Virus genome (UHGV): UHGV-1332848
Source of the DNA: a virus
Length of the DNA stretch: 64,000 nucleotides
Direction: 5' to 3' (one strand)
Shown here: in pieces, positions 1,343 through 55,390 of the stretch
Layout: every line of letters starts with the position of its first letter
How positions within the stretch are numbered: the first letter of the stretch is position 1
Notes under the pieces: model-generated
What the model was told of the DNA's origin: nothing
Database searches by the model: none
The model's input: the letters and a program-made list of their open reading frames with translations, nothing else
Position numbers and translations under genes: made by a program

Positions 1343-1389
1343 ATAATTAATTAAAAAGCATTTACAAGTATGAAACTAAATGGTAATAT
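1343..1389 (+). promoter_or_regulatory. AATAATTAATTAAAAA motif followed by TTTACA-17-TAATAT sigma-A-like promoter
   Basis: -35 TTTACA at 1361-1366, 17-nt spacer, -10 TAATAT at 1384-1389. Upstream AT-rich palindromic motif. Confidence 0.55.
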
Positions 1390-1445
1390 ATAGTTAAAGG
1401 GGGAATAAAGACTAATTAAATTTTCCCTTTTAATAATTAATTAAA

Positions 1446-1787
1446 ATGAGAGGTGAAAATATGGTTAAAAGGTTTGTATTAAAACTAAAGAATAGAAAAA
1501 TGCTGGAGGAACTAGATAAGATAAATATTAGAAATTCCGCATTACAAGATTATAAAAAATATGTATGGAATAATAGGTATGAAGAAGATGAGCGATTAAT
1601 AAAAAAGCTAAAGAGAAATTTTATTTTGGCTGAAGAGGTAAATTCTTATACTAAAAAGTATGGGAACTTATACATATATCATAGCATGAACACTATAACA
1701 AAAATATATAATGAAAAAGGTTCATCTAATGGGCTAAATATTGATGTTAAATTGAAAGAAGAGTTAAATTACATATTGGGAATATAG
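1446..1787 (+). CDS. hypothetical protein
   Basis: 113-aa ORF, RBS GAGAGG upstream. No recognisable motif. Confidence 0.5.
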   Translation: MRGENMVKRFVLKLKNRKMLEELDKINIRNSALQDYKKYVWNNRYEEDERLIKKLKRNFILAEEVNSYTKKYGNLYIYHSMNTITKIYNEKGSSNGLNIDVKLKEELNYILGI

Positions 1788-1798
1788 GAGGAATACAT

Positions 1799-2374
1799 AT
1801 GAATAAATTATTTGTTTTAATTGGAAAATCAGGTAGTGGGAAGTCTACTATAGAAAAAGAAATAGACAGATTGGGTTATGCCAATAAAATTATTTCTACT
1901 ACTACACGTAAACCTAGAAGCTTCGAGTATGATTCGATTGATTACTACTTTATAAGCCAAACTGTATTTGATATATATTTAAAGCAAGGGCAATATGCAG
2001 AACATAGTACATATCCAACTGTTTGGGGATTGGCTAGTTACGGAATTAATAAAAATGATATTAAACTCGATGAAGGCAATGCAATAGCGGTTGTGAATCC
2101 GCATGGCTATTTTCAACTCGTTGAGTCATTAGGGAAAGAAAATGTTGTAGGAATATATATAGATAGAAATGATAGAAAAAGGGTTATATCAGCCATAGAA
2201 AGAGATAAGAGTGATGATTTGGTTTCTATATTAGAGGAAGTTACTAGAAGGATTAAGGCTGACGAAAGAGATTTTGAAGGAATGAAAGATAAAGCAGACT
2301 ATGTCGTTAAAAATCATAGACTGCACATAGCAATTGATAAAGTTATAGAAATAATTAAAAAAGAAACCATGTAA
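1799..2374 (+). CDS. guanylate kinase-like P-loop kinase (GMP/dNMP kinase)
   Basis: Walker A 'GKSGSGKST'. Guanylate-kinase signature 'STTTRKPRSFEYDSIDYYF' (S.TTR..R..E..G.dY.F). RBS GGAGG. Confidence 0.7.
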   Translation: MNKLFVLIGKSGSGKSTIEKEIDRLGYANKIISTTTRKPRSFEYDSIDYYFISQTVFDIYLKQGQYAEHSTYPTVWGLASYGINKNDIKLDEGNAIAVVNPHGYFQLVESLGKENVVGIYIDRNDRKRVISAIERDKSDDLVSILEEVTRRIKADERDFEGMKDKADYVVKNHRLHIAIDKVIEIIKKETM

Positions 2375-2457
2375 GAGGTGCAAATAATGGACAAACGTTT
2401 AGAAGAATTATCGAGAGAACTGAAGAGACAATTTTTGAAGAGGAGGAAGTTGAAAGA

Positions 2458-2634
2458 TGAAAGCATTAAGAATAGTAAGTAAAAATAAAATTTCTAATTG
2501 GTGGTGTAAGTCTTGTTCTAGGAGTATGAATGCACTCATCAAGGTGGACAATAGGAGTTTTTGTGATGAATGTGTTCCAGAGCAATTTAAAGACAAATTA
2601 GTTACTGTAAATCAAAATAGGGAGGAAATATAGA
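2458..2634 (+). CDS. small Zn-ribbon-like protein (CxxC...CxxC)
   Basis: 58-aa ORF with AGGAGG RBS, plus strand. Overlaps the minus-strand track ORF 2408..2596, which is considered antisense noise. Confidence 0.4.
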
Positions 2635-2636
2635 TA

Positions 2637-2809
2637 TGGATGAAGACAAGATGTTGTGTCCGTTTAGAAAAGTAATTATTGGTTCAAATAATGGCTTAAA
2701 TCATAAAAGGTTACATAAAACAACAGAAGAATTTGCTTTTTGTGAAGGATACAAGTGTATGGCATATGAATGGCTTTCTAAAAAATGTAGATTAGTAGAC
2801 AATAAGTAA
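2637..2809 (+). CDS. small Cys-rich hypothetical protein
   Basis: 57-aa ORF directly after previous stop, GGGAGG RBS. Confidence 0.4.
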
Positions 2810-2850
2810 ATAAAAAATATATTTTAATAATTAATTGAATGAGGTGAATT

Positions 2851-3036: not shown

Positions 3037-3067
3037 TTAAAATAACTGTTTTAAGAAAAAAAGAAAC

Positions 3068-3216
3068 TACTTTTTAGTAGTAGATTCTATTTTATCTAAA
3101 TATTCTTTTACTAGGTCATTTAGGATATCGGCAACAGAAAGATTTCTTTCTATAGCATTGATTTTTAATTTTTTAATCATATTCTCTTCGATGTATGTAG
3201 TTAGTTTCTTTCTCAT
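3068..3216 (-). CDS. ribbon-helix-helix (CopG/Arc-like) DNA-binding protein
   Basis: 49-aa minus-strand ORF not in the track. Translation 'MRKKLTTYIEENMIKKLKINAIERNLSVADILNDLVKEYLDKIESTTKK' has an RHH pattern (beta strand + two helices). RBS GAGGTGA 7 nt upstream. Confidence 0.45.
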
Positions 3217-4348: not shown

Positions 4349-4350
4349 AT

Positions 4351-5373: not shown

Positions 5374-5419
5374 GAAAATAATACATAAAATTACAGATTT
5401 AATAATTAATTGAAAGGAT

Positions 5420-7563: not shown

Positions 7564-8373
7564 TTGGAGAATATACAATTATATAACGGGGATTGTTTAG
7601 AAATTATGGATAAATTAATTGAAGAAGGAATTGTGGTTGATGCTATTATCACAGACATTCCTTATGGAACAACTTCGTGTTGTTGGGATAGTATAATACC
7701 ATTAGAAGATATGTGGAAAAAGATAGATAAGATAAGTAAAGACGAAGCTCCAATAGTATTATTTAGTAGTCAACCTTTTACTTCTCAGCTTATAAATTCT
7801 AATATTAAAAACTATAGAGAAGAAATCATATGGTTGAAAAATAAAGGTGCTAGTGGATTACAAGCTAAACAAAAGCATATCAAAGTACATGAAAATATAA
7901 TTGTTTTTAGTAAAAAAGGCAAATATACATATAATCCTCAAAAATGGGAAGTGAAAGAAAAGGAATTTTTAACTCAAAGAAAAACAATGAGTGTTTATGG
8001 TGAAACAAATAATATATATGGTAATTTAAAAAGAAACAGAAAAGCAGATGATGGAACTAGAAATCCTATATCAATTATACCATTTAGAGTGCCAATAACA
8101 CCTGCGAAAACAAAAAATTATGATAAGTCTATTGATATAAGAATCCACGAAACACAGAAGCCTATATTATTAATGGATTATTTGGTTAGAACTTATAGTA
8201 ATGAAGGGGCAACTATATTAGATTTTACAATGGGTAGTGGAACAACTGGTATATCAGTTTTAAATGTTGGTGGTGATAGAAAATTTATAGGTATAGAAAA
8301 AGACCATACATATTTTGATATAGCAAAAGAAAGAATTGAAAATACATATAATGAGAAGTTAAAAAGTGAATAA
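7564..8373 (+). CDS. DNA methyltransferase (N4-C/N6-A, DPPY motif, ParB-less 'DNA methylase N-4/N-6' family)
   Basis: 'DAIITDIPYG' DPPY motif IV near the N-terminus and C-terminal 'ILDFTMGSGTTG' motif I (beta-class order). RBS GAGGTG. Confidence 0.85.
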   Translation: MENIQLYNGDCLEIMDKLIEEGIVVDAIITDIPYGTTSCCWDSIIPLEDMWKKIDKISKDEAPIVLFSSQPFTSQLINSNIKNYREEIIWLKNKGASGLQAKQKHIKVHENIIVFSKKGKYTYNPQKWEVKEKEFLTQRKTMSVYGETNNIYGNLKRNRKADDGTRNPISIIPFRVPITPAKTKNYDKSIDIRIHETQKPILLMDYLVRTYSNEGATILDFTMGSGTTGISVLNVGGDRKFIGIEKDHTYFDIAKERIENTYNEKLKSE

Positions 8374-8483
8374 AATTTAGATTTTAAAAATAATTAATTA
8401 AATAGTAAATATATTAAGACCTTCAGCATATACTATATTGTAGAATGAAATGTTGGAGGTTTTTTAGTGAAAAATGTTTATAT

Positions 8484-8531
8484 AATAATTAATTAAAAAC
8501 TATTGACAGGTAAAATATGGTTTGGTACAAT
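8484..8531 (+). promoter_or_regulatory. AATAATTAATTAAAAA motif + consensus TTGACA-17-TACAAT promoter
   Basis: TTGACA 8503-8508, 17-nt spacer, TACAAT 8526-8531. Confidence 0.65.
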
Positions 8532-11887: not shown

Positions 11888-11936
11888 TAATAATTAATTA
11901 AAAAGTCTTGAAGGTTAATATATAATATGGTAATAT
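11888..11936 (+). promoter_or_regulatory. AATAATTAATTAAAAA motif + TTGAAG-17-TAATAT promoter
   Basis: TTGAAG 11908-11913, TAATAT 11931-11936. Confidence 0.55.
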
Positions 11937-11984: not shown

Positions 11985-12323
11985 ATGAATGAATTAAAAG
12001 CATTTTACATTACAGATGATAACGGGATTATAAAAGATCTCATAATAGGAACAAAAGAAGATAGACAAGTTGCCTTAACTACACTAGATTTTATAGAAAG
12101 TAGAAATGATAGTTGGCTCAAGCATCGAGTAGTTGAGATGCCAGCAGAAGGGATAATACATAAAGGATATATGAATATAGTAACTACTATAAAGATGAAT
12201 GGAATTCCAATTCGATGTATTCTTAATGGATTTCATAGCTTAATTGAGGCTATAGACAAGTATATGAGTATTGAAGATGGTTATAGACATTATAGTTATA
12301 TTAGCGAATACATAAAGTTGTAA
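11985..12323 (+). CDS. hypothetical protein
   Basis: 112-aa ORF, RBS GTGAGG. Confidence 0.5.
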   Translation: MNELKAFYITDDNGIIKDLIIGTKEDRQVALTTLDFIESRNDSWLKHRVVEMPAEGIIHKGYMNIVTTIKMNGIPIRCILNGFHSLIEAIDKYMSIEDGYRHYSYISEYIKL

Positions 12324-12354
12324 TAATTAATTAAAAATAGGTGGAAACACCTAC

Positions 12355-12554
12355 AATAAAGGTCGATTCAACGGTGATATGGTAAAAAGTATCACATACC
12401 TAAATCGAGAAGTATCAACCACCAAGTATTTTCTTGAAAGGGCTGAAAACTCTCGATAAACCAAAAGAGCGAATAGCTGGTAAATTCTTAGCGACAGTGG
12501 ATATTAGGGTGCTAAGACATATATACTATATCTAACAACAGTATATTTACTAGG
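12355..12554 (+). ncRNA. structured non-coding scaffold A (tracrRNA/omegaRNA-like), upstream of mini-array A
   Basis: Shares ordered blocks with scaffold B: AATAAAGGTYGATT (12355-12368), ACCTAAATCGAGAAG (12398-12412), AACTCTCGATAA (12448-12459), CAAGTATTTT..CTTG. ATCGAGA/TCTCGAT can pair. Contains anti-repeat ACATATATACTATATCTAAC (12517-12536). Confidence 0.5.
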
Positions 12555-12652
12555 GTTAGATATTAACATAGTATATATGTGAATACATGTAGCAACGGAT
12601 CATATAAAAAATGCTATCAAGTTAGATATTAACATGGTATATATATTGAATA
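12555..12652 (+). CRISPR. mini CRISPR-like array A: 2 x 31-nt repeats (GTTAGATATTAACATRGTATATAT...) with one 35-nt spacer, period 66
   Basis: Repeats at 12555-12585 and 12621-12652 with 2 mismatches. Unique spacer CATGTAGCAACGGATCATATAAAAAATGCTATCAA. Confidence 0.5.
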
Positions 12653-12711
12653 TTAGAATTGTGTATATAAATGAATTATTAACAAAATTAATTAAATAAA
12701 GAGGTATAAAA

Positions 12712-14510: not shown

Positions 14511-14523
14511 AGTTGAATATGCA

Positions 14524-14570
14524 ATAATTAATTAAAAACTATTGAGAAACATAGAAATATATGGTAATAT
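14524..14570 (+). promoter_or_regulatory. AATAATTAATTAAAAA motif + TTGAGA-17-TAATAT promoter
   Basis: TTGAGA 14542-14547, TAATAT 14565-14570. Immediately after array B. Confidence 0.55.
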
Positions 14571-14777
14571 AAAAGAGTGGATAAATTCTACAAATAAAAT
14601 CGTACTAGATTAAATTTACATATATAAAAATAGTTAATTAAAAGGAGGTGGAATATATAAATAAAATTAAAATTTTCTTATATGGACTAATGATAAGAGT
14701 AGACGTCAAATTCAGACTGTACCACAAATGGAGTGAATTTAAAAAATGGGTTGATGTAAAAATGGGTTGATGTAAAA

Positions 14778-14942
14778 ATGGGTTGCAGGGATAAAACTGG
14801 AAATATCATAAAATGTAGGTATTGTAGGTCTAAAAACTTAGATTGTTACGATAACATAATTGATTCTGGATGGTGTTCTATTATTGAAAAGATGGTAGGA
14901 TGCAAACAATGTGGAAAAGATTTGGGGTATAAAAATAATTAA
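14778..14942 (+). CDS. small Cys-rich Zn-ribbon-like protein
   Basis: 54-aa ORF with 6 Cys including CxxC pairs. Start created by third copy of a 16-bp tandem repeat (ATGGGTTGATGTAAAA x2.5). Confidence 0.3.
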   Translation: MGCRDKTGNIIKCRYCRSKNLDCYDNIIDSGWCSIIEKMVGCKQCGKDLGYKNN

Positions 14943-14970
14943 TTAAAATGAAAAAAGGAGAGATATAAAA

Positions 14971-16937: not shown

Positions 16938-16986
16938 TAATAATTAATTAAAAACTATTTACAATACAATAAAAAGATGTTAATAT
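16938..16986 (+). promoter_or_regulatory. AATAATTAATTAAAAA motif + TTTACA-17-TAATAT promoter
   Basis: TTTACA 16958-16963, TAATAT 16981-16986. Confidence 0.55.
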
Positions 16987-17038: not shown

Positions 17039-17767
17039 ATGAGAAAAGATGAATTAATGAAAGACTTATTAAGTTGTGGATTTAAATTTAATGAAAGAGG
17101 TGATATTGTAAATTTTGAGAGCAGGAAAACGGATTTAGAAGGAATGTTATATTCGTGGAAGGGTACTATTTTTGAAAACTCTGTGAAAGATAGTGTAAGT
17201 AATGTATTAAAAAACGTAGATGAATATAACGAATTAAATAAAGTGGTAAAAACAAATAAAATAAACTACAAAGACGGACTTGGAATTCTGTCTTGGGAGT
17301 TATTAGACAAAAATAATTTAAAGGTGAAAGTGCATAGTGGGCGATTCCATATTGTGACATTATTAAAGATATTAATTTCCGAAATAGATGTTTTGAAAGA
17401 ATTTAGCTATAAAAGAATTAGCCCTTATAAGCTAGAATGGGAAAGACCTATGCATAGAGAAGATAAGACTCACGTCTACAAAATGGTGTTTATTGATGTG
17501 AAGGATGAAAATAAAATCAAAGAATCTGAAATAATAAAGCTGAATTGTAGCATGAGCTTAGAGGTAGGGGAATATAATTTTTTCATTCCAGATTTATTGG
17601 AACTTGCGAGATTGAAAGGTTTAGTTAAACTAGAAGAAGATATTTATAAATATGTAGAAGGTAGATTTATTGATGTATTGAATATAAAATATATTGACGA
17701 TAGTATGAGCAAGGAGAAACTTAAAGCAAGTGGTTGGACAGTACCCATAGGATATGTAGAAAGATAA
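17039..17767 (+). CDS. hypothetical protein
   Basis: 242-aa ORF, RBS AGAGAGG. Confidence 0.55.
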   Translation: MRKDELMKDLLSCGFKFNERGDIVNFESRKTDLEGMLYSWKGTIFENSVKDSVSNVLKNVDEYNELNKVVKTNKINYKDGLGILSWELLDKNNLKVKVHSGRFHIVTLLKILISEIDVLKEFSYKRISPYKLEWERPMHREDKTHVYKMVFIDVKDENKIKESEIIKLNCSMSLEVGEYNFFIPDLLELARLKGLVKLEEDIYKYVEGRFIDVLNIKYIDDSMSKEKLKASGWTVPIGYVER

Positions 17768-17798
17768 AATAATTAATTAAAAAGAAAGGGGTGGTATT

Positions 17799-17972: not shown

Positions 17973-18089
17973 AAAAATAATTAAATTCACAATTTTATAA
18001 AGTTTCAAATTGGATTAATAGTTACTCAGAGAAGTGATATCCATCATATAATAATTATTTAAAAATATAAGAAAAAGAGGAGAGATTTT

Positions 18090-19169
18090 ATGGCAAAAGA
18101 AAGAGTTTTTGACTTACCAGAAACTAAAGGGGAATTTAAAGCAAGAGGATTAGTAACAGGGACATCAAAGGATAAATACTTAAAATTAAAACAAGGGGAT
18201 GATAAAAAACTTAGAAAGTTTCTTCACTTTGGATTAAAGATAAAAGAGGATGGTTCATCAGTATATTGTGACTTACAAGGTAATGAAAAAGATTTTGTTT
18301 ATTTTTACAAAAAGGGAGATAAAAAAACTGGTACTAAAGGGGTAAGCCAAAAGGTTAACTTTAATACAAGAGATAAGTTTAAAGAAGAAGGATTTGAACC
18401 AATAGGGGTAAAGGTTGGTATAGAACAATACATAGATGGTAAAGGTGCTTTAAAAAATAAAAATATTCCAATGTTTGAATTTGATGCAGTAGATTATCTG
18501 AAAGCAAACTTAACAGAAGAAATGCCTGTGTTTATTAGAGGTAAAATGGAGTTTAGTAGTTTTATAAATGGAACAACAGGTGATAAAGTTAGAATGCAAA
18601 AGTTTGTTCCAACTCAAATAAGTGGAGTTACAACAGACTTAAAAATGTCTGATGAAAACTATGCACCAGTTAATGACTTTATCCAAACAATAGTTTTTAT
18701 GGGGTTAGAATTAGATGAAACAAGCAAAGAAGATAAGAAGGGCATTTTATCTGCTAAAGTAATTAACTATTCCACAATAGAAGATGTTGAATTTATAATA
18801 AGAGATCAAAAAATATTCAAGACATTTAAAAAGAATTTAAAGCCATACAATGCTATAAAGGTCTTTGGTAAAATACATAATAAGGTTGAAAAAGAAGAAG
18901 TTGAAGATGATGGATGGGGAAGTTCTAATAATTCATTTGAGCAAAAGAACAATTCATTTACAAAGGAGCTATTAATACTTGGTGCTGATCCAGATACATT
19001 AGACAAAGAAACTTATACAAAAGAAAATATTGAAGAAGCTTTAGAAAAAATAAAATCAAGTAGAAAAGCAAGAGAAGATTTTGGTTCAAAAAATAATGAA
19101 GAAGGAAATGATTGGGGTACAAGTTCAAGTGATTCAAGTTCAGATGATGAGTTTGATAACTGGGATTAA
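18090..19169 (+). CDS. hypothetical protein with acidic C-terminal tail (possible ssDNA-binding/recombination accessory protein)
   Basis: 359 aa. C-terminus 'DWGTSSSDSSSDDEFDNWD' resembles the acidic tails of SSB-type proteins. Sits at the head of the replication module. RBS AGAGGAGAG. Confidence 0.35.
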   Translation: MAKERVFDLPETKGEFKARGLVTGTSKDKYLKLKQGDDKKLRKFLHFGLKIKEDGSSVYCDLQGNEKDFVYFYKKGDKKTGTKGVSQKVNFNTRDKFKEEGFEPIGVKVGIEQYIDGKGALKNKNIPMFEFDAVDYLKANLTEEMPVFIRGKMEFSSFINGTTGDKVRMQKFVPTQISGVTTDLKMSDENYAPVNDFIQTIVFMGLELDETSKEDKKGILSAKVINYSTIEDVEFIIRDQKIFKTFKKNLKPYNAIKVFGKIHNKVEKEEVEDDGWGSSNNSFEQKNNSFTKELLILGADPDTLDKETYTKENIEEALEKIKSSRKAREDFGSKNNEEGNDWGTSSSDSSSDDEFDNWD

Positions 19170-19214
19170 TAATTAATTAAAAGAAAATTAGAATTAAAAG
19201 GAGAGATTTGAAGT

Positions 19215-24681: not shown

Positions 24682-24720
24682 ATATATATAATAATTAATT
24701 AAAAGTGATGAGGTGAAAAT

Positions 24721-30128: not shown

Positions 30129-30176
30129 AATAATTAATTAAAAAGTATTTACAAAATATAGATATGGTGTTATTAT
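30129..30176 (+). promoter_or_regulatory. AATAATTAATTAAAAA motif + TTTACA-17-TATTAT promoter-like element, followed by hairpin 30180-30213
   Basis: TTTACA 30148-30153, TATTAT 30171-30176. Hairpin AGTACAAGG...CCTTGTACT + T-rich right after. Confidence 0.4.
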
Positions 30177-30445: not shown

Positions 30446-30493
30446 AAAAATAAATAAAATATTTATTTTAATAATAATTAATTAAATAAGAGG

Positions 30494-31267
30494 GTGGTTA
30501 ATGTGTGTAAAAGAATCTATAAAAGTTATAAGATTAAAGTTATTAATGATGATGGTGAGAAATACATAGACTTCAACAAAAATATTGATACAACATCATA
30601 CAATACAGTAATAAAGTACTATCATATGACTAAATATAAATATCAAAATGAAGATTGTACAGTAGAAATGGTGGGTGTGTACGAAGATGGTACAATAGGT
30701 AGTATTATATTCAGTAAAACATTTTCTAAGGAAGTTATTGAAGATAAAGAAATTTTAAAATCCACAGATGACATAGTAAGTGAGATAAAGGAGTTACTAG
30801 AACTATTAGATAGAAAGAATGAATATCATAATAGTATGAAAAGTTTTTTCGACAAGAAACAAGATGTCTTACTTCATAAAATAGAATCTGTAAAATTTTT
30901 AGATGCTACTAAGGTGAATATAGTTGATGAGAAACTAAAGATAATAAATGAATTGGAAGAAGTTAGACATAATAGAAGAATTAATAAAAATGAAGCAAGA
31001 AAGTTACAGCTAGTATATAGTAAAGCAAATATACAAGAAATTATAGATAAGTTTAATCAAATAAAAATCCCGATTGATACAAAAGATTATGAATACATAA
31101 ATGGTGATTTAGAAGAACAAATGATAAAAGAGATTAAATATAATTCTGAAAAGCAACGTATAAATTTAATGAAACAGATAGAGGGTAAATATAAAAAGAT
31201 TATTAATGATGAAGTTAGAAAAGTGTTGATATGCTACAACAAGGCTTATTATAAGAGTAATAATTAA
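30494..31267 (+). CDS. hypothetical protein
   Basis: 257-aa ORF, RBS AGAGGGTGG. Confidence 0.5.
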   Translation: MVNVCKRIYKSYKIKVINDDGEKYIDFNKNIDTTSYNTVIKYYHMTKYKYQNEDCTVEMVGVYEDGTIGSIIFSKTFSKEVIEDKEILKSTDDIVSEIKELLELLDRKNEYHNSMKSFFDKKQDVLLHKIESVKFLDATKVNIVDEKLKIINELEEVRHNRRINKNEARKLQLVYSKANIQEIIDKFNQIKIPIDTKDYEYINGDLEEQMIKEIKYNSEKQRINLMKQIEGKYKKIINDEVRKVLICYNKAYYKSNN

Positions 31268-31294
31268 TTTAAAATATAAAAGAGGTGACATTAA

Positions 31295-33593: not shown

Positions 33594-33641
33594 AATGCGA
33601 ATTTTATTAACAATTAATTAAAATATAAAAAGAGGTGTTAA

Positions 33642-34410: not shown

Positions 34411-34459
34411 AAAAATTGTTTAATAATTAATTAAAAACTCTTTACAGTTTTTAGAATAA
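34411..34459 (+). promoter_or_regulatory. AATAATTAATTAAAAA motif + TTTACA-17-TAACAT promoter
   Basis: TTTACA 34431-34436, TAACAT 34454-34459. Confidence 0.5.
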
Positions 34460-34494
34460 GTGGTAACATATAAATATAGGGAGGAGGTGAACGA

Positions 34495-34804: not shown

Positions 34805-35375
34805 GATGGCAAAGAATAGGATTCTAAGCACTTTACTCTCGGTTATGTTATTAACACCATTGATTAAGGTAAGGGCTATAGAGATTCCTGCTTCTAAACC
34901 AAGAAAGGGAATTGAATTTGACAGGAATTTGAATTTAAGAAATTATGAAGTCGAACAAGTGGAAGAATTAATTAAAGTTGAATTTAAAAAACGTAAGAAA
35001 ATCGAATTGGAAGAACAAAAGAAAAGGGAAATTGAGGAGCAAAAGTTGGAAAATAAAAAGCAGTATTGGAAGTTTGAAGTGAGTTACTATTGTGGATGCT
35101 ACTACTGTACTCAGAATGGTAATTTAATTACAGCAAGTGGCGAGTGTGCACAAGAAGGAGTGACGATAGCTTTGCCCAAAGATATACCTTTTGGCAGTAA
35201 AGTGCATATAGACGATGTTGGGGATTTTATAGTACAAGACCGAGGTGGGTACATCGAATACACGTATGATGAAGAAGGAAACTTAATAATGAGGGCAGAT
35301 GTGTATATTGAAAATCATGATAGAGCTTTGGAGTTAGGAAGACATATTGAAAGTGGATATATAATAATTAATTAA
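34805..35375 (+). CDS. secreted 3D-domain protein (MltA/YuiC-like peptidoglycan-binding/lytic)
   Basis: Signal peptide 'MAKNRILSTLLSVMLLTPLIKVRA'. C-terminal 'ASGECAQEGVTIALPKDIPFGSKVHIDDVGDFIVQDRGG' matches the 3D-domain pattern. ATG at 34805 has RBS AAAGGGGGA (track start 34770 lacks one). Confidence 0.5.
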
Positions 35376-35395
35376 AATAATTGAGGGGTGGTTTT

Positions 35396-36927: not shown

Positions 36928-37110
36928 ATGGATAATTGCTGTAACTGTAATAAAGAATGTGAATCTGAATATGTTTGTTCAGAATGTAGAGAAATAATGT
37001 GTTATAATTGTTGGCAAATTATGGTGGTATATGCGAAAGTTGCTATGATAAATATTATAGTGATGATGAAGAAGATATTTAAAAGAGGTATTTTATTAAA
37101 AATAAATTAA
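36928..37110 (+). CDS. Cys-rich small protein (possible internal frameshift)
   Basis: N-terminus 'MDNCCNCNKECESEYVCSECREIMCYNCW'. An alternative frame downstream reads 'GGICESCYDKYYSDDEEDI*'. Confidence 0.35.
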   Translation: MDNCCNCNKECESEYVCSECREIMCYNCWQIMVVYAKVAMINIIVMMKKIFKRGILLKIN

Positions 37111-37124
37111 AAGGAGAAAGTTAA

Positions 37125-38791: not shown

Positions 38792-39118
38792 ATGGACAAA
38801 TTTAAATACACTATAAACGATATATTTAAATTTCCAATAGGAACTAAATTACAAGATGAAGAGGGTAATACATATAAAATATTTCAAGATAAACTTGGTT
38901 CGAAAACATTCAAGTATGCAATATTAAATGATAGATTAATGAATAGTAAATTTAAAGTGGTTGATTATAATGATGTTGAAGATAAGGATTTAATATGCCC
39001 TGATTGTGGTAGAGAGCTGGGAAGAAGATTTGTAAAAATAGATGACCACGGCGGATATGATTTCATTCTTGGAGTAGAATACGATTGTGAGTGTGGTTAT
39101 TACAGAGTAGATAAATAA
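38792..39118 (+). CDS. Zn-ribbon protein
   Basis: 'CPDCGRE...CECGYY'. RBS AAGGTAGGTG. Confidence 0.5.
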   Translation: MDKFKYTINDIFKFPIGTKLQDEEGNTYKIFQDKLGSKTFKYAILNDRLMNSKFKVVDYNDVEDKDLICPDCGRELGRRFVKIDDHGGYDFILGVEYDCECGYYRVDK

Positions 39119-39145
39119 TAAATTAAAAAGTGAGAGGTGTAAAAT

Positions 39146-39605: not shown

Positions 39606-39697
39606 AGTAGATAAAACATTGATTTTATTAATAATTAATTAAAAATAAGCCAACGTTGCTGAAACAGGGGTGAGTATAGATTAAAGGGAGGAATTAC

Positions 39698-40845: not shown

Positions 40846-41729
40846 ACCGATAAACTAAAACTGTCGCATATAGTAGTGATATTATATGAAAACCCATCTA
40901 AACGGAGAAAGTCCTATATAAAGGATAACTCACCGTACTAAATTGTTGAATATTTAAAAATTAATTAAATAGGAGGTGTTATATTGTGGAAAGATATTCA
41001 AAATTGGGAAGATTTATATGAAGTTAGCGATACTGGGGAGGTTAGAAATAAATTATCCAATAATTTATTAGTTGGTGATATTAATAACGCAGGTTACTAT
41101 CGTGTATGTTTATATAATAAGAACCACATACCGCCAAAACAAAGGTTCTTTAGACATAGACTGGTGGCAAAACATTTTATAGATAACCATAAAAATCTAC
41201 CTCAAGTAAACCATATAGATGGTGATAAATCAAATAATTCGATGAATAACTTAGAATGGGTTAGCCCAAAAGAGAATGAAATACATAGTAGAAAAGTTAT
41301 TGGCGTAAAAGAATATAAACCATTTGCTGTAGTTTTTGATAATGGTAAAACCATTGTTTGTAATTCAAAATCAGAATTAAGCAATGAAATTGGGTTAACA
41401 AAAACTTCTATAAAAGAATGGTTGCATAAAGGTAACACCGGTTATTTAAAAAGAGGGATTAAAGATATATACTACATATAAAGTAAAAGTATTCAACATA
41501 AAAGTCTAAAGACTAACGAAAACAATTAATAGAGAAACACTATTAAGGGAATGAGTAGTGTAGAGCCACAAGCTTATGGTGGTAAGGCACGGGAGATAAG
41601 ACCTTTTAAATCGAAACGATGGGGCTCTTATCAATGGTAACAGTTGTAAGAGTGTGATATAGTCTAATATCTTATGGTAACATAAGGAAGTTCATAAGAG
41701 AACTGTACAACAGTTGCGATGTTGTATGA
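40846..41729 (+). other. group I-like self-splicing intron interrupting nrdD (boundaries approximate), carrying an HNH homing endonuclease ORF
   Basis: ~0.9 kb non-NrdD insertion between two NrdD-coding halves. Downstream part (41482-41729) is structured RNA-like (paired GAGCC...GGCTC, AAATCGAAACGATGG). Exon-2 reading frame reopens at 41730 after in-frame TGA 41727-41729. Confidence 0.65.
40984..41481 (+). CDS. HNH homing endonuclease (intron-encoded)
   Basis: 'VNHIDGDKSNNSMNNLEWVSPKENEIH' HNH motif. 165 aa. RBS AGGAGGTG. Located inside the nrdD intervening sequence. Confidence 0.75.
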   Translation: MWKDIQNWEDLYEVSDTGEVRNKLSNNLLVGDINNAGYYRVCLYNKNHIPPKQRFFRHRLVAKHFIDNHKNLPQVNHIDGDKSNNSMNNLEWVSPKENEIHSRKVIGVKEYKPFAVVFDNGKTIVCNSKSELSNEIGLTKTSIKEWLHKGNTGYLKRGIKDIYYI

Positions 41730-43725: not shown

Positions 43726-43773
43726 AATAATTAATTAAAAACTTATTGACTTCCTTACAGTATGTGGTAAAAT
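43726..43773 (+). promoter_or_regulatory. AATAATTAATTAAAAA motif + TTGACT-16-TAAAAT promoter overlapping a hairpin (43749-43790)
   Basis: TTGACT 43746-43751, TAAAAT 43768-43773. Inverted repeat TTCCTTACA...TGTAAGGAA + T-rich. Confidence 0.45.
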
Positions 43774-43830
43774 ATAAATTGTAAGGAAGTTATTTCTTTA
43801 TAATCAATTAAATGAAAAGGAGAGGATGAA

Positions 43831-44316: not shown

Positions 44317-44560
44317 TATGTATAATGCAAGAATATTAAATAATAAACTTCTATGTGGACATTGTGGAAGTAATAAAATATCTGGAATAAGAGATTATAA
44401 AGAGGTCTTTATGAACGATATCGCTTACACTATGTTTCAAGTAAAGTGTTACTCATGTAACTCTGATAATAGGTATTTAGCCGACGTTACTTTGGAAGGT
44501 ACAACTAGATATGAGATAAATCATAAAATAACTGACATGAAACAATACAATAATAATTAA
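44317..44560 (+). CDS. Zn-ribbon protein
   Basis: 'CGHCGS...CYSCNS'. ATG at 44317 directly after dut stop. Track start 44270 overlaps dut. Confidence 0.45.
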
Positions 44561-44622
44561 TTAAATAGTAGATTTATAAAGTAAGTAAGTTGATATTATT
44601 ACGAATCGTAATGGAGGTAGGA

Positions 44623-46945: not shown

Positions 46946-47074
46946 TTAATGAATAATACATATAAAGAAAGCAAATACCGTATTTAGTATATAAATAAAA
47001 TTCAGACACAATATATGGTATATAAAAGTTTATAAAACTAAGATTTTAATAATTAATTGAAAGGAGATAAAGTT

Positions 47075-50558: not shown

Positions 50559-51074
50559 GTGATTATCATTAATAAAATACAATTGCAAATAAAAATCAAA
50601 AGATTAAAAAGAAGGTTAATTGAAAAGTGGTATAAATTAGTTAAACCATTAGCTAATTTAATAGATAAAGTAGACAGTATAAAAGATAAAATACACAACA
50701 AGAAAGTAGAGAATATAACTATTGAAAAAGCATCTAAGTTACTTTCCAAGACTATCATCAAAGATTTGGTCAGACATTCTTCGGTAGATGGGTACGAAAT
50801 TGAATTAGAGGTAGCTAAAAGGAGTCAAGAATATTGCGGTGATACCGTTTTAGAATATATTAATAAATTTACGAACAATAAGTACTTAAAAACTTGGGCT
50901 TGGAGAGTTAAAGATGAGGACAAAGTTAATCATTGTAAAACTTTGGCTGAAATATTAATACATGGAGATTTAAAGAAATCTGGAGTTTCTATAAAAGTCT
51001 ATAAAAGAGATTACGGAATATACAAACATAGGATCCCAGAAGACTACCAATATACAATACAGATAAGTTTATAA
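50559..51074 (+). CDS. hypothetical protein
   Basis: 171-aa ORF, GTG start, RBS AAGAGAGGTG. Confidence 0.45.
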   Translation: MIIINKIQLQIKIKRLKRRLIEKWYKLVKPLANLIDKVDSIKDKIHNKKVENITIEKASKLLSKTIIKDLVRHSSVDGYEIELEVAKRSQEYCGDTVLEYINKFTNNKYLKTWAWRVKDEDKVNHCKTLAEILIHGDLKKSGVSIKVYKRDYGIYKHRIPEDYQYTIQISL

Positions 51075-51115
51075 AATGTGGATTTCAATAATTAATTAAA
51101 GGAGTGGATTATAAA

Positions 51116-51706
51116 ATGACATGTGTGGTAGGAATGTTAGATAAAGAGAATAAAACAGTTTACTTGGGTGGAGATAGCTTAGGCTCAAATGGTTATATAA
51201 AGACAATTTATAAACAAAGAAAGGTTTTTCATTCAAAAGATACAAATGATTTAATTATAGGTATTTGTGGTTCTTTCAATTTTCAAGGGTTAGAATATGA
51301 AAAATTGCTAGATGAAACAAAATTATTGAAAGGCGAGATAGATAGAGAATATTTAATAACAAAGTTTATACCAAATTTAAGAAGAATAATATCGTCATAT
51401 AACTGTAACGAATCCAAAAGCGGGATAGATAGTATGGAAGGAGTTTTACTATTCGGATATAGAGATAATTTATTTATGATACAATCCGATTACTCGTTAG
51501 TGGAATCTACTGATGATTATTTGGCAATTGGTAGTGGGATGGATTACGCTTTAGGAAGTTTAGCAACAACTTATGATAATGAAATACCTATAATAGACAA
51601 AATACATATGGCTTTAAAGTCAGCTACAAAACATGTGGTAGGAGTTGAACCACCGTTCTACATAATAAATACAGCTAATGACGAAGTAATAGAATTGTTA
51701 GAATAA
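51116..51706 (+). CDS. HslV/proteasome-beta-like Ntn-hydrolase peptidase
   Basis: ATG 51116 (RBS AAGGAGTGG) gives N-terminal 'MTCVVGM' (Thr1 nucleophile after Met removal). 'LGGDSLGS' and 'LAIGSGMDYALGSLA' parallel HslV 'IAGDGQ' and 'IAIGSGGPYAQAAA'. Confidence 0.55.
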   Translation: MTCVVGMLDKENKTVYLGGDSLGSNGYIKTIYKQRKVFHSKDTNDLIIGICGSFNFQGLEYEKLLDETKLLKGEIDREYLITKFIPNLRRIISSYNCNESKSGIDSMEGVLLFGYRDNLFMIQSDYSLVESTDDYLAIGSGMDYALGSLATTYDNEIPIIDKIHMALKSATKHVVGVEPPFYIINTANDEVIELLE

Positions 51707-51883: not shown

Positions 51884-52573
51884 ATGAAGAGAAAATTAAT
51901 CAATAAGATTATATTAACATTATCTTTAACATTAGCGATAACAACATATTATACAATAGATAAATACATAAATATAAAACAACAACAAAAGGTTATGCCG
52001 TTATCAACTAAAGAAGAAATTGATCTAATATCTAAAGATGTGATAATTAAAAAACTTAATAATGAGAACCAAATGTTAGTAGTGTCTGGAGAAACAGAAG
52101 TCCAAGTTACATATTCAAATAAAGATATAGCTGAAGATGATGTTAATTTTAAATGGATTAAAGATTGGTTTTCTAAGATGAATAGTAAAGACTTAAAGAT
52201 TAATGCTACTTATACATATCAATTCCATTACGATTTAAAGGACTTAGACATAACAATAGTTAATAATAAACCCAGTATGAATCTTAGTAAGAATAGACTA
52301 AACTGTGAAGCTGAATTGATAGATAATAAATCTATTTATGCTGATAGGGTAGGCATATTTGAATCTCAGTTTACTCCACAGGAAGTTAGTTCTATTAATG
52401 CAAGAACTAAAGCAATAGTATTAAATAAAATACAGAATGATAAAGAACTTAGGGATAAAGCTATGGCTAATGTACAAAAGAATATAGAGGATTTATTAAA
52501 GATTGATTGTAAATTTAGTGTAGCAAAATATGATGTAGTTGAATATAATAATGAAATTTTATTTAATAATTAA
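51884..52573 (+). CDS. membrane-anchored hypothetical protein
   Basis: N-terminal TM 'LINKIILTLSLTLAITTYYTI'. 229 aa. Confidence 0.5.
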   Translation: MKRKLINKIILTLSLTLAITTYYTIDKYINIKQQQKVMPLSTKEEIDLISKDVIIKKLNNENQMLVVSGETEVQVTYSNKDIAEDDVNFKWIKDWFSKMNSKDLKINATYTYQFHYDLKDLDITIVNNKPSMNLSKNRLNCEAELIDNKSIYADRVGIFESQFTPQEVSSINARTKAIVLNKIQNDKELRDKAMANVQKNIEDLLKIDCKFSVAKYDVVEYNNEILFNN

Positions 52574-52612
52574 TTAAAAACTATTTACAATGTAAGAAAA
52601 TGATGGTATTAT
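52566..52612 (+). promoter_or_regulatory. AATAATTAATTAAAAA motif + TTTACA-17-TATTAT promoter
   Basis: TTTACA 52584-52589, TATTAT 52607-52612. Confidence 0.5.
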
Positions 52613-52818: not shown

Positions 52819-52862
52819 TACATAATAATTAATTAAAAATATTATAATAAAGGAGAATGATT

Positions 52863-53372
52863 ATGAATAAAAACAAAAAAATCTACATCGCAGGGAGTTT
52901 ATTTTCTGAAGCTGAGGTTGCACAAAGAATAAAGGAGGGAGAGTTGTTAAAAAAAGTTGGGTTTGAAAATATATATAATCCTATACAAGCCCCATGCAAT
53001 TCCAAGGAAGATTTGCCGACTGCTGAAGATATTTTCTGGGGAGACACAAAAGAAGTATTAGAATCAGAAATTGTAGTGATTGATATAAGTAACCCACTAG
53101 ATGCAGGAGTTTTTTGTGAAACTGGGATAGCTTGGGCTTGTAATTACATCCATAGGTTAGCTAATGAAGGTAAGAATTTAGATGAAGTTTTAAACATAAT
53201 GAAAGAAAAGATGGTAGTAGCACATCTATCTGATATAAGGAAATCGACATCACATAGATATAATGGCAACCATATTCCAGTAGGATTTAATCAATTTGCA
53301 GTAGCCTGTATTGAAGATGTTGGTGTTATAAAAGACAGTTTCAATGAAGTATTAGAAGAGTTAAATGATTAA
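52863..53372 (+). CDS. nucleoside 2-deoxyribosyltransferase-like protein
   Basis: N-terminal 'KKIYIAGSLFSEAE' matches the NDT/Rcl family 'iYlAGp.F' motif. RBS AAAGGAGAA. Confidence 0.45.
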   Translation: MNKNKKIYIAGSLFSEAEVAQRIKEGELLKKVGFENIYNPIQAPCNSKEDLPTAEDIFWGDTKEVLESEIVVIDISNPLDAGVFCETGIAWACNYIHRLANEGKNLDEVLNIMKEKMVVAHLSDIRKSTSHRYNGNHIPVGFNQFAVACIEDVGVIKDSFNEVLEELND

Positions 53373-53405
53373 TTTGTATCTATTGCGAAGAAAATGGAGG
53401 TAACT

Positions 53406-53684
53406 ATGGATTTAAAAATAAAAGATAAAGTTATATTCACTAATATGCAAAATGGAAATGAAGAAGTTGGAGAAATACAACTAATTGCACAAGTCACAGA
53501 TTGTGATACTACTGGAATAGTCGGTAAAAATGTTTATTATGTTAGAACTATAACGGGAGGACAACTATTTTTTAGGCAAAACTTAGAAAAATATACAGAA
53601 GGAGTTAAGGATCAATGTCCTTGTATGAAAGAGCCAAGCTATAATTGTGGCATGAAATGTTCAAGATGTGGAAGAGAATTGTAA
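53406..53684 (+). CDS. small protein with C-terminal Cys cluster
   Basis: ATG 53406 with RBS AATGGAGGTAA. 'CPCMKEPSYNCGMKCSRCG'. Confidence 0.45.
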   Translation: MDLKIKDKVIFTNMQNGNEEVGEIQLIAQVTDCDTTGIVGKNVYYVRTITGGQLFFRQNLEKYTEGVKDQCPCMKEPSYNCGMKCSRCGREL

Positions 53685-53729
53685 TTCGCAATTCAGAAAT
53701 AAGAATAAATTAGGGGAGGAAATGAAAAT

Positions 53730-54014
53730 ATGAATTTAGCAACATTATTTAGTACATTTCAATTAGTAGGAGGTGTAGTTCTGTTTATATCGTATTTACC
53801 GATGATTAAGTTGCTACACACTACAAAATCAGCTAAAAATCAAAGTATTAGTTTTTGGATCATATTAGATGTAGGAATGGTTTTATTTGAGTTAAATGCT
53901 CTATATTTAGCAATTACACTAGGACAACTATCATATGCAATAAGCCAATCATTAAATTTATTATGCGGTATTATTGTATTAATTCAATTATTAATTTATA
54001 GAAAGAATGATTAG
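53730..54014 (+). CDS. small 3-TM membrane protein
   Basis: 94 aa, hydrophobic throughout. RBS GGGGAGGAAATG. Confidence 0.5.
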   Translation: MNLATLFSTFQLVGGVVLFISYLPMIKLLHTTKSAKNQSISFWIILDVGMVLFELNALYLAITLGQLSYAISQSLNLLCGIIVLIQLLIYRKND

Positions 54015-54023
54015 GAGTAAGTG

Positions 54024-54663
54024 GATGAAGAAATTAAAATTATTTATAGATATGGATGAGTGTATTTTCGACCTTTCAGATGCTATAAGATTAAGAGTAA
54101 ACAAAGACTTTAACAAAAATTATCCGAAGGGATTCAATAAATCTTATTGGTGGTCAGATTATGAAATACCAAAGAAATATTTTGAAAATTTACTAAATCA
54201 AAAAGGATTATTTTTAGATTTGCAACCATATGAATGTGCAATAGAAACATTAACTAAACTACATGAAGAAGGTTATGATATACATATTCTAACTTGCCCA
54301 CAGTACAATGAAACGTGTTTCATAGAAAAAGTATTGTCGGTTAAAAAATACTTACCATTCATAAATATAGAAACTAATTTTCATACAAGTGGCAATAAAG
54401 GTTTGTTTGCTAAAGAGAATAGAATATTAGTTGATGATAATCCAATTTACATAAACCAATTTAGAGACAATGGTGGCTATGCGATAGTATTCAATCAACC
54501 TTGGAATAAAGAATGTAATGATGCTAGGGCGTTTAATTGGAATGATGTTTATGAGTATATAAAATTATATGATGAAGTTTATAATTTTAATAATACAAAT
54601 GTAAAAGTTAATGTAGATATAAATAATTATAAAAAGTATATGGAAGGAGCTTATCATGAGTAG
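54024..54663 (+). CDS. HAD-family 5'(3')-deoxyribonucleotidase-like protein
   Basis: N-terminal 'LFIDMDECIFDL' matches HAD motif I (DxD) as in NT5C 'vDMDGVLadf'. RBS TTAGGAGTAAGTGG. Confidence 0.45.
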
Positions 54664-55273
54664 TAAATTATATTTCAAGTATGGCTGTATGAACTCAAGT
54701 AAATCATTAAATCTTTTAGCAACAGCTCATAACTATGAATCACAGGGTAAAAAAGTATTGCTAATAAAACCAACTTTAGATACAAGGACAGACAAAGGAA
54801 TTATTGAAAGTAGAGTAGGTATTTCTAAAAAATGTATTGATGTAGATAAGGATACTAACTTAATAAATTTATTTAAAATGCATATAAAGTATAATGATTT
54901 AATACATTGTATTTTGATTGATGAAGCACAATTCTTAACGAAAGATCAGGTAAAACAATTAGCAAAAATAGTTGATACATACGATATTCCAGTTCTTTGT
55001 TATGGTCTTAAAAACAGTTATATCGAATCTGAATTGTTTGAAGGAAGTCAAGCACTTTTATACTACGCAGACAAGTTGGAAGAAATTAAAACAACTTGCT
55101 TTTGTGAGGGATGTAATTCAAAGGCTACAATGAATCTTAGGATATTAAATGGTGAAGCCGTATATAACGGAGAAATGATTAATTGCGGAGATACCAAACC
55201 AACAAGCGATTATTATATGCCAGTATGTAGAAAACATTATTACAATCAAATAGGTTATTATAATCTTAAATAA
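54656..55273 (+). CDS. tdk: thymidine kinase
   Basis: 'YFKYGCMNSSKS' P-loop of TK1 family. C-terminal Zn ribbon 'CFCEGCNSKA...PVCRKHY'. Confidence 0.85.
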   Translation: MSSKLYFKYGCMNSSKSLNLLATAHNYESQGKKVLLIKPTLDTRTDKGIIESRVGISKKCIDVDKDTNLINLFKMHIKYNDLIHCILIDEAQFLTKDQVKQLAKIVDTYDIPVLCYGLKNSYIESELFEGSQALLYYADKLEEIKTTCFCEGCNSKATMNLRILNGEAVYNGEMINCGDTKPTSDYYMPVCRKHYYNQIGYYNLK

Positions 55274-55390
55274 GTTACTCGTAAATGATATAGATATTAT
55301 AATTAATTAAACTATATCAAAATTACTTCTGAAACATATAATATATCATAATAAGTTTATAGGAAGAGTTTTTATGAAAAAATAAAAAAA

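Follow-up and report, generated by a model that had tools for sequence, protein, structure and literature searches.

General features of the phage genome

The window analysed here is a stretch of 64,000 nucleotides of the virus genome UHGV-1332848, corresponding to bases 1–64000 of the ENA contig ERZ807474 NODE_1 (130,278 bp, 211x coverage). The analysis covered this 64-kb window and its extension to 73.5 kb (~74 kb) of the contig. Its intergenic regions harbor multiple copies of a 15-mer, hereafter box A (AATAATTAATTAAAA), which is the subject of this work. The genome encodes a replication module consisting of YorF, DnaB-like helicase, Toprim primase, PDDEXK nuclease, DnaE-type polymerase, and RecD-like helicase. 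Further early genes code for the anaerobic ribonucleotide reductase NrdD, dUTPase, nucleotide kinases, and DNA methyltransferases. Lysis genes, a YomF-like gene, a tape-measure gene, and other tail genes are located on the other strand.

A 335-aa protein with an integrase fold, encoded at 59805–60812 on the minus strand, is 51% identical to YomM of the Bacillus phage SPbeta (E 5e-125). Homologues of it are present in 94 phage records, predominantly of SPbeta-group Bacillus phages, and on contigs of 120–150 kb, which come from gut-virome assemblies, Clostridium botulinum D/C plasmid records, and a Lysinibacillus chromosome contig. SPbeta YorI, YorJ, and YorL had matches at 23%–27% identity and YosS (dUTPase) at 51%; Pfam families YorF, YopX, and YomF_N were also found among the phage proteins. 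From these protein similarities, the phage is a distant relative of SPbeta from a low-GC Firmicute, and its relatives include prophages. A megablast search for near relatives, with the replication region against 50,697 phage records, gave no match, and no RNA genes were found in the window with Rfam at the gathering threshold or with ARAGORN.

Abundance and location of box A

The window contains 18 exact copies of box A, all on the plus strand, while dinucleotide shuffles of the whole window yielded none. With up to two mismatches, 52 copies were present in the whole window versus 11.3 expected. As an intergenic control, the gaps of the plus-strand cluster extended by 15 nt on each side (8.7 kb, 24% GC) were shuffled segment by segment with dinucleotide composition preserved. 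In this set, 18 exact copies were observed versus 0.003 expected, 29 copies with at most one mismatch versus 0.23 (all on the plus strand), 35 copies with at most two mismatches versus 2.2, and 31 copies of the core TTAATTAA versus 3.7. Box A is no by-product of AT-richness but a genuine, statistically robust finding of biological significance.

Every copy is intergenic and oriented like its genes. Box A lies on the plus strand across the plus-strand cluster (1–55.3 kb), and weaker copies occur on the minus strand in the minus-strand cluster (55.5 kb onward); therefore, its orientation follows transcription. It was found at none of the 25 junctions with a gap shorter than 5 nt and at 13 of the 17 junctions with a gap of at least 100 nt. 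In long gaps, it adjoins the Shine-Dalgarno (SD) sequence or the −35 hexamer rather than the upstream stop codon (18050, 40956, and 47048, with gaps of 77–102 nt). Box A thus belongs to the downstream unit and is start-associated, not stop-associated. It carries TAA in all three frames, and in about 15 of the ~35 cases, the box provides the upstream gene with its stop codon or directly adjoins that codon. The palindromes TTAA and AATT are also contained in the box.

Two sequence contexts of box A

Nine copies are fused to sigma-A promoters (class I). In these, an exact box A is followed by A and 3–4 further bases, TTKACA, a 17-nt spacer ending in TGn, and TAWNAT. This layout (TTKACA-N14-TGn-TAWNAT) is nearly identical across the sites, with a distance of 4 nt between the box and the −35 hexamer; at 43726, the distance is 5 nt and the spacer 16 nt. 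The class I boxes span positions −54 to −40, with an A-tract at −43 to −39. Beyond box A and the sigma-A elements, nothing is conserved in these regions, and box A is the only element common to the early promoters besides the sigma-A elements.

A generic sigma-70 consensus scan was uninformative in DNA of 27% GC, since its counts equaled those in shuffled sequences, and was replaced by a position weight matrix (PWM) built from the phage's own promoters. This matrix, self-trained on the same nine class I promoters, scored them at 14.5–19.9 bits, as the nine best sites on the plus strand; the next best reached 13.7. A partly independent check is provided by the generic scan, in which five of the seven plus-strand matches with a TG-extended −10 were box-linked. 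Promoter-like sequences occur at chance-level abundance everywhere in this 27% GC DNA, about 130 per 20 kb.

In the second context (class II, ~19 sites), box A lies a median of 5 nt (−2 to 16) upstream of an SD-like tetramer, even where the upstream stop codon is 77–102 nt away. The distance from the box to ATG is 12–32 nt; the box lies upstream of the SD sequence. These copies tolerate one or two mismatches. The PWM scan revealed no promoter above the null distribution in the 75 nt preceding class II boxes, except for the box at 1432, which follows the 1342 promoter. Overall, for about two thirds of the box A copies, the neighboring 75 nt contain no promoter. Four further copies (8389, 12322, 39630, and 44552) head longer leaders.

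The sequence-only reading of this window had reported about 30 copies of the motif before genes, at least nine of them at a near-fixed distance from a promoter, and had named shuffled intergenic controls preserving dinucleotides as the way to separate it from mere AT-richness. The copy number holds, with 18 exact copies and 29 with at most one mismatch; in these controls, the motif lies far above expectation, and the claim is not refuted. All nine promoter-linked copies were recovered, with their true starts given in Table 1. The earlier coordinates are correct within a few bases, apart from 34411, which should be 34422. Of the copies described as adjacent to ribosome binding sites (RBS), those at 1432, 5401, 14934, 17768, 19168, 24690, 35363, 47048, 51087, and 52824 are real, and two are degenerate: "2825" is a copy with two mismatches, and "7036" is the truncated copy AATAATTAATgtg.

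Some early promoters have additional features. The leaders transcribed from the 1342 and 30129 promoters (window 1393–1434 and 30178–30220) open with strong hairpins (−13.1 kcal/mol, z = −2.1, and −15.8 kcal/mol, z = −3.8, respectively) followed by U-runs. The 30129 hairpin is conserved in the relative L141 described below. Both hairpins look like attenuators or 5' stabilizers. The dUTPase promoter (window 43745–43795) lies inside a 15-bp inverted repeat, GACTTCCTTACA ... TGTAAGGAAGT, reaching from the −35 hexamer to just beyond the start site (−21.2 kcal/mol as RNA, z = −6.2). This repeat, which is conserved in the orthologous promoter of the relative L139 (~17290–17350, minus strand), may be a second, promoter-specific operator or a 5' stabilizer. 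Downstream of the 1342 promoter and the 1432 box, the first gene (window 1461–1787, plus strand) has a faint Pfam match to YorE. In SPbeta, yorE belongs to one of the ten promoters controlled by the repressor MrpR through its operator SPBRE (PMC10516654). The 1461–1787 unit may perhaps be an orthologous box-controlled yorE unit, with a match too weak to rely on.

Replacement of the box in related phages

Relatives were collected around the ortholog of the DnaE-type polymerase, with identities of 86% in L141, 75% in L142, 70% in L143 (a metagenome-assembled genome of Clostridium sp.), and 69% in L129. The module from YorF to the helicase is orthologous in all four. Boxes in the relatives were counted at no more than one mismatch. 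L141 carries box A (AATAATTAATTAAAA; 6 copies observed versus 0.24 expected), L142 carries a different sequence, box B (AATATATTAAATAA; 15 copies, 14 of them on the gene strand, versus 0.49), and L143 a third one, box C (ATTAYAAAWTATA; 16 copies, 15 on the gene strand, versus 2.8). An exact box A precedes the DnaE gene of L141, and the class I promoter after the helicase (30129 in the window) has its ortholog there. No box A was found in the DnaE-region sequences of L142 and L143, and boxes B and C are no more frequent in the window than expected by chance; the enrichment of each box is confined to the genome that carries it.

Boxes B and C occur in the same two contexts as box A, either 1–3 nt upstream of TTGACA-type promoters with a TG-extended −10 or abutting the SD sequence. 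They are also found at the same junctions, directly before DnaE and at the promoter after the helicase; at the latter, L129 has its own box as well. The spacing between box and −35 is 1–5 nt in the three lineages. Neither box B nor box C has the A-tract or the three-frame TAA. The promoters of L129 carry a box-B-like element, CATAATATATTAGAATAA, and in L139 (84% for YomM), the core AATTAATTAAA is kept in both contexts, lying 15 nt from the −35 at the orthologous dUTPase promoter.

At four orthologous junctions of the window and L141, 56 of 60 box positions are identical (93%) versus 304 of 452 positions of the flanks (67%), even though these flanks include coding ends, hexamers, and SD sequences. 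Box A is probably under purifying selection between these two phages. In IMG/VR, the box A 15-mer had only single chance matches among the matches listed, and the 25-mer comprising box A and the −35 had no match. Position and architecture are conserved; the box sequence is uniform inside each genome, and from one lineage to another, all boxes are exchanged together. No description of lineage-specific box replacement across this phage family was found in the literature searched.

Table 1. Copies of box A in the window, with their sequence context and orthologous sites
Type	Position	Strand	Match to box A	Context
Class I	1342..1389 (box 1342–1356)	+	exact	4 nt, TTTACA, 17-nt spacer with TGG, TAATAT; upstream of YorE-like gene (faint Pfam match)
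Class I	8484..8531	+	exact	4 nt, TTGACA-17-TACAAT with TGG
Class I	11889..11936	+	exact	4 nt, TTGAAG-17-TAATAT with TGG
Class I	14523..14570	+	exact	4 nt, TTGAGA-17-TAATAT with TGG
Class I	16939..16986	+	exact	4 nt, TTTACA-17-TAATAT with TGT
Class I	30129..30176	+	exact	directly after helicase stop codon; 4 nt, TTTACA-17-TATTAT
Class I	34422..34469	+	exact	4 nt, TTTACA-17-TAACAT with TGG; orthologous site L141 16444
Class I	43726..43773	+	exact	5 nt, TTGACT-16-TAAAAT; upstream of dUTPase
Class I	52565..52612	+	exact	supplies stop codon of upstream gene; 4 nt, TTTACA-17-TATTAT
Class I-like, weaker tenth copy	62011..62025	-	AATAATTAATTAAAT	3 nt, TTGACT, no clear -10; upstream of RusA-like gene
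Class II	1432..1446	+	exact	after leader hairpin of 1342 promoter; 3 nt before SD
Class II	2826..2840	+	2 mismatches, AATAATTAATTGAAT	abuts SD
Class II	5401..5415	+	1 mismatch	abuts SD
Class II	14629..14643	+	1 mismatch, AATAGTTAATTAAAA	abuts GGAGG; downstream of 14523 promoter
Class II	14934..14948	+	exact	stop codon of upstream gene inside box
Class II	17768..17782	+	exact	begins directly after upstream TAA
Class II	18050..18064	+	1 mismatch	upstream of YorF homologue; 77 nt after upstream stop, 12 nt before SD
Class II	19168..19182	+	exact	junction of YorF and next gene; L129 has AATAACTAATTAAAA there
Class II	24690..24704	+	exact	directly upstream of DnaE-type polymerase; at this junction L141 has identical box, L142 box B, L143 box C
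Class II	30473..30487	+	1 mismatch	orthologous site L141 11336
Class II	31259..31273	+	1 mismatch	upstream stop codon inside box
Class II	33609..33623	+	1 mismatch	upstream of DNA methyltransferase
Class II	35363..35377	+	exact	upstream stop codon inside box
Class II	37098..37112	+	2 mismatches	abuts SD
Class II	39114..39128	+	1 mismatch, AATAATAAATTAAAA	
Class II	40956..40970	+	2 mismatches	abuts SD of HNH/NUMOD4 ORF in nrdD insert; 97 nt after upstream stop
Class II	47048..47062	+	1 mismatch	abuts SD; 102 nt after upstream stop
Class II	51087..51101	+	1 mismatch	abuts SD
Class II	52824..52838	+	exact	upstream of nucleoside deoxyribosyltransferase gene
Extra copy	8389..8403	+	1 mismatch	95 nt upstream of 8484 copy, same gap
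Neither class I nor II	12322..12336	+	exact	gene end; then hairpin and 375 nt of non-coding DNA before TnpB gene
Other copy	39630..39644	+	exact	head of 53-nt nrdD leader
Other copy	44552..44566	+	1 mismatch	upstream stop codon inside box; ~40 nt before SD
Minus-cluster copy	59795..59809	-	AATAATAAATTAAAA	overlaps stop of YomM-like gene, abuts SD
Minus-cluster copy	63492..63506	-	degenerate, AAAAATTAATTACAA	abuts SD of GDSL-family gene

Comparison with known repeated elements

The closest comparison is with the 15-bp SPbeta repeated element (SPBRE), which was predicted to be an operator in 1999. In 2023, ChAP-seq, electrophoretic mobility shift assays, and reporter fusions showed that the master repressor MrpR (YopR) binds it, as double-stranded DNA, at ten early promoters (PMC10516654). 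From the SPbeta genome (NC_001884), we derived the element CAAAKAYAAAWAATATGTATA, present in ~13 copies, each co-oriented with its gene. It is located upstream of the −35 at aimR and at the first yonX copy, and inside the spacer and −10 at yonP, yorE, yorM, yorZ, and yosX. At yopM, yopV, and the second yonX copy, it lies between the −10 and the SD sequence, abutting GGAGG, and one weak copy is intercistronic, before yonO. The two systems belong to the same phage group, sharing YomM, the replication module, dUTPase, YorF, YopX, and YomF. Both elements are AT-rich, asymmetric, about 15 bp long, co-oriented with the downstream gene, and found at the set of early promoters; in both, some copies abut the SD sequence, in SPbeta those at yopM, yopV, and yonX and before yonO. 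Box C of L143 (ATTACAAAATATA) loosely resembles SPBRE (AAATACAAAAAATATGTATA). On the other hand, box A has ~30 copies versus ~13 in SPbeta, its distance to the −35 is fixed, whereas SPBRE may be upstream of the −35, in the spacer, or downstream of the −10, and no MrpR homologue was found in 74 kb of this phage.

The operators and stoperators of Cluster A mycobacteriophages (L5 gp71, Bxb1, and TipsytheTRex repressor) are likewise asymmetric 13–15-mers in more than 20 copies, located at promoters and in short intergenic spaces, with an orientation tied to transcription. Their motif differs between related lineages, which there determines immunity specificity; the stoperators vary together with their repressors (PMC9283540, PMC6550527). 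However, the phage, the host phylum, and presumably the protein are unrelated, and box A, in contrast to stoperators, is placed tightly against the SD sequence or the −35 hexamer. Stoperators act through an orientation-dependent block of elongation; box A resembles them in sequence layout. The start-associated sequences (SAS) of Cluster K phages, together with their extended form (ESAS), are a start-linked repeat thought to act in translation (PMC3203893). Like box A, this 13-mer is found in one orientation in the non-structural half of the genome, a few nucleotides from gene starts and sometimes with the upstream stop codon inside. Unlike box A, SAS includes the SD sequence, lies 3–7 bp from the start codon, and is conserved across subclusters; box A is upstream of the SD sequence, also promoter-fused, and lineage-variable. 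Box A is best described as an SPBRE- or stoperator-like regulatory box of a clostridial SPbeta-like phage and requires no new category.

Search for the cognate regulator

Comparison of ~60 window proteins with Pfam and PHROGs revealed only one ribbon-helix-helix (RHH) protein and one weak match to HTH_72. Neither members of the MrpR family (PF22822/PF22823) nor a clear helix-turn-helix protein were found in the window (1–64 kb) and its extension to 73.5 kb. The RHH protein (49 aa, 3067–3216), suggested in the sequence-only reading as a candidate binder, is the only obvious DNA-binding protein in the 73.5 kb. Its own promoter region has no box nearby, and no connection between this protein and the motif emerged. 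The YomM-like protein (59805–60812, minus strand) was considered as an MrpR analogue because of its integrase fold and the substitution of Lys for the second catalytic Arg, and was rejected: it is a YomM ortholog and a conserved late-cluster gene without similarity to YopR/MrpR. By synteny with SPbeta, the lysogeny module should be located in the remaining 56 kb of the contig.

Possible function of box A

The concerted, lineage-specific replacement of the box at orthologous sites points to a lineage-specific factor acting in trans and counts against a UP element of the host or a generic AT-rich leader. Such replacement resembles the operator sets of heteroimmune phages, which favors a factor encoded by the phage. 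That some phage-encoded factor reads box A, whether as a repressor, at the RNA level, or as a positive regulator, is quite probable. Because the phage is related to SPbeta, SPBRE/MrpR provides a precedent, and box A is the sole non-sigma-A element shared by the early promoters, we favor a repressor operator. Box A would then be the recognition site of a lineage-encoded phage regulator, most probably the operator of a repressor silencing the 55-kb early cluster, as a counterpart of SPBRE and MrpR; we give this full reading about an even chance. The sequences themselves show the statistics, the two contexts, the strict orientation, the conservation against diverged flanks, and the exchange of the box at orthologous sites of related phages; the protein nature of the factor, its binding to DNA, and repression are what we infer.

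The sequence-only reading had proposed either a phage-specific UP element or a binding site for a phage regulator or sigma-associated factor organizing early transcription. Phage specificity agrees with the enrichment of each box in its own genome only, the relatives carrying other boxes, and the link to early transcription with the fixed distance between the box and the whole set of early sigma-A-type promoters. A binding site for a phage-encoded regulator is the best of these proposals; the data speak neither for nor against a sigma-associated factor. A UP element is not a sufficient explanation, since about two thirds of the copies lack a nearby promoter, other boxes occupy the orthologous sites, and the A-tract is not conserved.

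A putative repressor bound at about −54 to −40 of the nine or ten early sigma-A promoters, against the −35 hexamer, would block the binding of RNA polymerase. The ~20 promoter-less boxes before RBS could provide a stoperator-like block for read-through polymerases or those started spuriously in the 27% GC DNA; alternatively, they could be extra nucleation sites. Since promoter-like sequences occur at chance abundance in such DNA, a repressor acting only at promoters would leave much spurious transcription unchecked.

Several observations weigh against the repressor operator. No candidate box-binding protein was found in the 73.5 kb analysed. In a tblastn search of the six-frame open reading frames (ORFs) from 50–100 kb of SPbeta, yopR included, against the 74 kb, yopR had no match; the only match was weak (E 5.7e-4), linking an ORF at ~91.4 kb of SPbeta to window 23370–23573, inside a replication gene. 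A database search with MrpR returned Bacillus-group proteins only. Box A (AATAATTAATTAAAA) has no similarity to the SPBRE consensus (AAATAYAAAWAATATGTATA), and about two thirds of its copies are away from promoters, whereas nearly all SPBRE copies are at promoters. Tight adjacency to the SD sequence, which is a signal only in RNA, is not required by a repressor acting on DNA. Lysogeny of this phage is deduced only from its relatives in the Lysinibacillus chromosome and C. botulinum plasmid records. Finally, motifs of the distant relatives L135–L139 are weakly significant in 20-kb samples: in a max-statistic k-mer test on 20-kb sequences around YomM, only the window and L135 were significant. 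The relatives that decide the matter are the sequences of the DnaE neighborhood, not these YomM-neighborhood samples.

Since the boxes of three lineages, and SPBRE in SPbeta itself, occur right next to the SD sequence, a role at the RNA level or at both levels is still to be considered. In the former case, the box would be a signal 5' of the SD sequence read by a lineage-specific factor, such as a translational regulator of the T4 RegA type or an intercistronic endoribonuclease, its position at promoters being secondary. Strict co-orientation with transcription, the median of 5 nt to the SD sequence kept in long gaps, the same abutment in boxes B and C, and the precedent of Cluster K SAS (PMC3203893) are all consistent with this. 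Yet class I boxes lie upstream of the −35, outside the transcript of that promoter, and their spacing is nevertheless fixed within 1–5 nt in three lineages, which argues for a role at the DNA level. Moreover, no RNA structure is associated with the box, and SPBRE, the only tested homologous system, binds its protein as double-stranded DNA (PMC10516654). We consider an RNA-level signal unlikely. It is also improbable, in our view, that the box is a general 5' adaptor of expression units read by one lineage-specific factor at two levels, as double-stranded DNA beside the −35 to control initiation and as RNA or the non-template strand of the transcription bubble beside the SD sequence to control translation or elongation of single cistrons. 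A positive phage factor has a similarly low probability. It could activate RNA polymerase at class I sites, for which a position beside the −35 is compatible, or be a processivity or antitermination factor loaded at each box, like RfaH at ops, in which case the hairpins and U-runs after the 1342 and 30129 promoters could be attenuators needing antitermination. Lineage specificity requires only that the factor be phage-encoded, not that it repress. Against activation, the class I promoters already combine a near-consensus −35 with an extended −10 and should be strong unaided, as expected of early promoters; sites centered near −47 are atypical for activators, and the SPbeta precedent is a repressor.

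Two other explanations were weighed. Host-read signals alone, with no dedicated phage factor, would account for several properties; the box would be a UP element bound by the alpha subunit where promoters follow and, before RBS, an AU-rich leader free of structure with a three-frame stop. The E. coli and B. subtilis UP consensus matches class I boxes in position and composition, these being A/T-rich at −54 to −40 with the A-tract near −42, and TAA in all three frames is provided along with the upstream stop codon at 15 of ~35 copies. But identity over 15 of 15 positions in 18 copies goes far beyond the needs of a degenerate UP or AU-rich signal, and many copies are promoter-less. Boxes B and C, unrelated in sequence, occupy the orthologous sites without an A-tract or triple stop, each box is enriched only in its own genome, and box A is conserved against diverged flanks. 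The C-terminal domain of the alpha subunit and 16S rRNA are probably too conserved to account for lineage-specific boxes, and host-read signals seem to us an improbable explanation. Still less probable is a recombination linker or mobile regulatory cassette, in which identical short sequences 5' of genes promote gene shuffling between co-infecting relatives and the three-frame stop would make any junction safe. A similar role in gene shuffling has been proposed for the promoter-early stem-loops of T4. These are likewise near-identical early-promoter cassettes between small variable genes, some flanked by hairpins. The family is highly mosaic, with conserved modules among unrelated small genes, boxes are found at unit boundaries, and the phage encodes a PDDEXK nuclease and a RusA-like resolvase. 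However, box A has no conserved stem-loop and is mostly promoter-less, and the boxes bear no sign of exchange. Compared with L139, the window has an insertion (50559–51706) with a box inside, not at its borders. Recombination would leave the fixed −35 spacing and the concerted replacement unexplained, boxes B and C lack the triple stop, and 15 bp offers little length for homologous exchange.

Other types of repeats were considered and dismissed. Chi, FtsK-orienting (KOPS), and parS-type sites are not restricted to intergenic DNA or are clustered. A promoter of a phage RNA polymerase does not fit, since the box is enriched in the early, not the late, cluster and lies upstream of host-type promoters. 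A miniature inverted-repeat transposable element or the end of an insertion sequence would be part of a larger repeat unit, which is absent here.

Additional features of the genome

The early (plus) and late (minus) clusters converge at a bidirectional terminator with a 17-bp stem (window 55391–55430). GC skew and AT skew both change sign near 55.4 kb with the direction of transcription, from values of +0.3 to +0.5 on one side to −0.25 on the other. The early cluster contains a TnpB gene (12712–14061, plus strand; 449 aa, IS605 OrfB and Cas12f1-like TNB domain) preceded by 375 nt of non-coding DNA (12337–12711) and a hairpin at 12337–12354. L141 also has a TnpB gene, located at a different place (18210–18785). 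The nrdD gene is split into the ATP-cone/NRDD part (39698–40858) and the glycyl-radical part (41826–42701). The insert between them (~40859–41825) encodes an HNH_3/NUMOD4 homing endonuclease (40984–41481) and resembles a group I intron or another mobile insert of this kind; no intron was reported there by Rfam at the gathering threshold. An I-HmuI-like ORF is present within nrdD of the relative L135 too.

In the YomM-like protein, a conserved core gene product encoded at the end of the late cluster, the Lys that substitutes for the second catalytic Arg (GRRINPHLFKAS) occurs without exception in the nine aligned family members (homologues were taken from the P0001–P0120 set) and is also present in SPbeta YomM and YopP. 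From its sequence, this protein may be a non-canonical or inactive recombinase. The divergent gap between its gene and a 74-aa ORF (61034–61258), at 60813–61033, contains repeated ACTATATGG(T)TAA / TATATGGTTAAG units, which resemble the operators of a local switch; Pfam gave no match for the 74-aa protein. Three DNA-modification-type genes are located in the early cluster, coding for a DUF4942 protein cut by the contig start (1–1341), an N6_N4 methyltransferase (7564–8373), and a second DNA methyltransferase (33642–34355). No link between these genes and the TTAA and AATT palindromes of box A was found.

Implications for SPbeta-like phages

SPbeta-like phages form a large, mostly uncultured family of 120–150 kb temperate phages and plasmid-prophages of gut Clostridia, C. 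botulinum group III, and Bacillus. Our comparisons point to a short box particular to each lineage at orthologous promoters and gene starts. If one protein does read the box at both the DNA and RNA levels, this protein and one 15-mer would gate ~30 genes regardless of operon structure, and the same logic would extend to SPBRE/MrpR and to the large family of 120–150 kb Firmicute phages, each with its own box. If each lineage does have a box of its own, the box would be a simple sequence read-out of the immunity group, would map early promoters without transcriptomics, and its co-variation would give a computational route to the cognate regulator. Our results also extend the SPBRE/MrpR idea from ~10 promoter operators in one Bacillus phage to a genome-wide network of ~30 sites similar to mycobacteriophage stoperators, in which case this silencing strategy would have arisen, or be shared, in very distant groups of phages.

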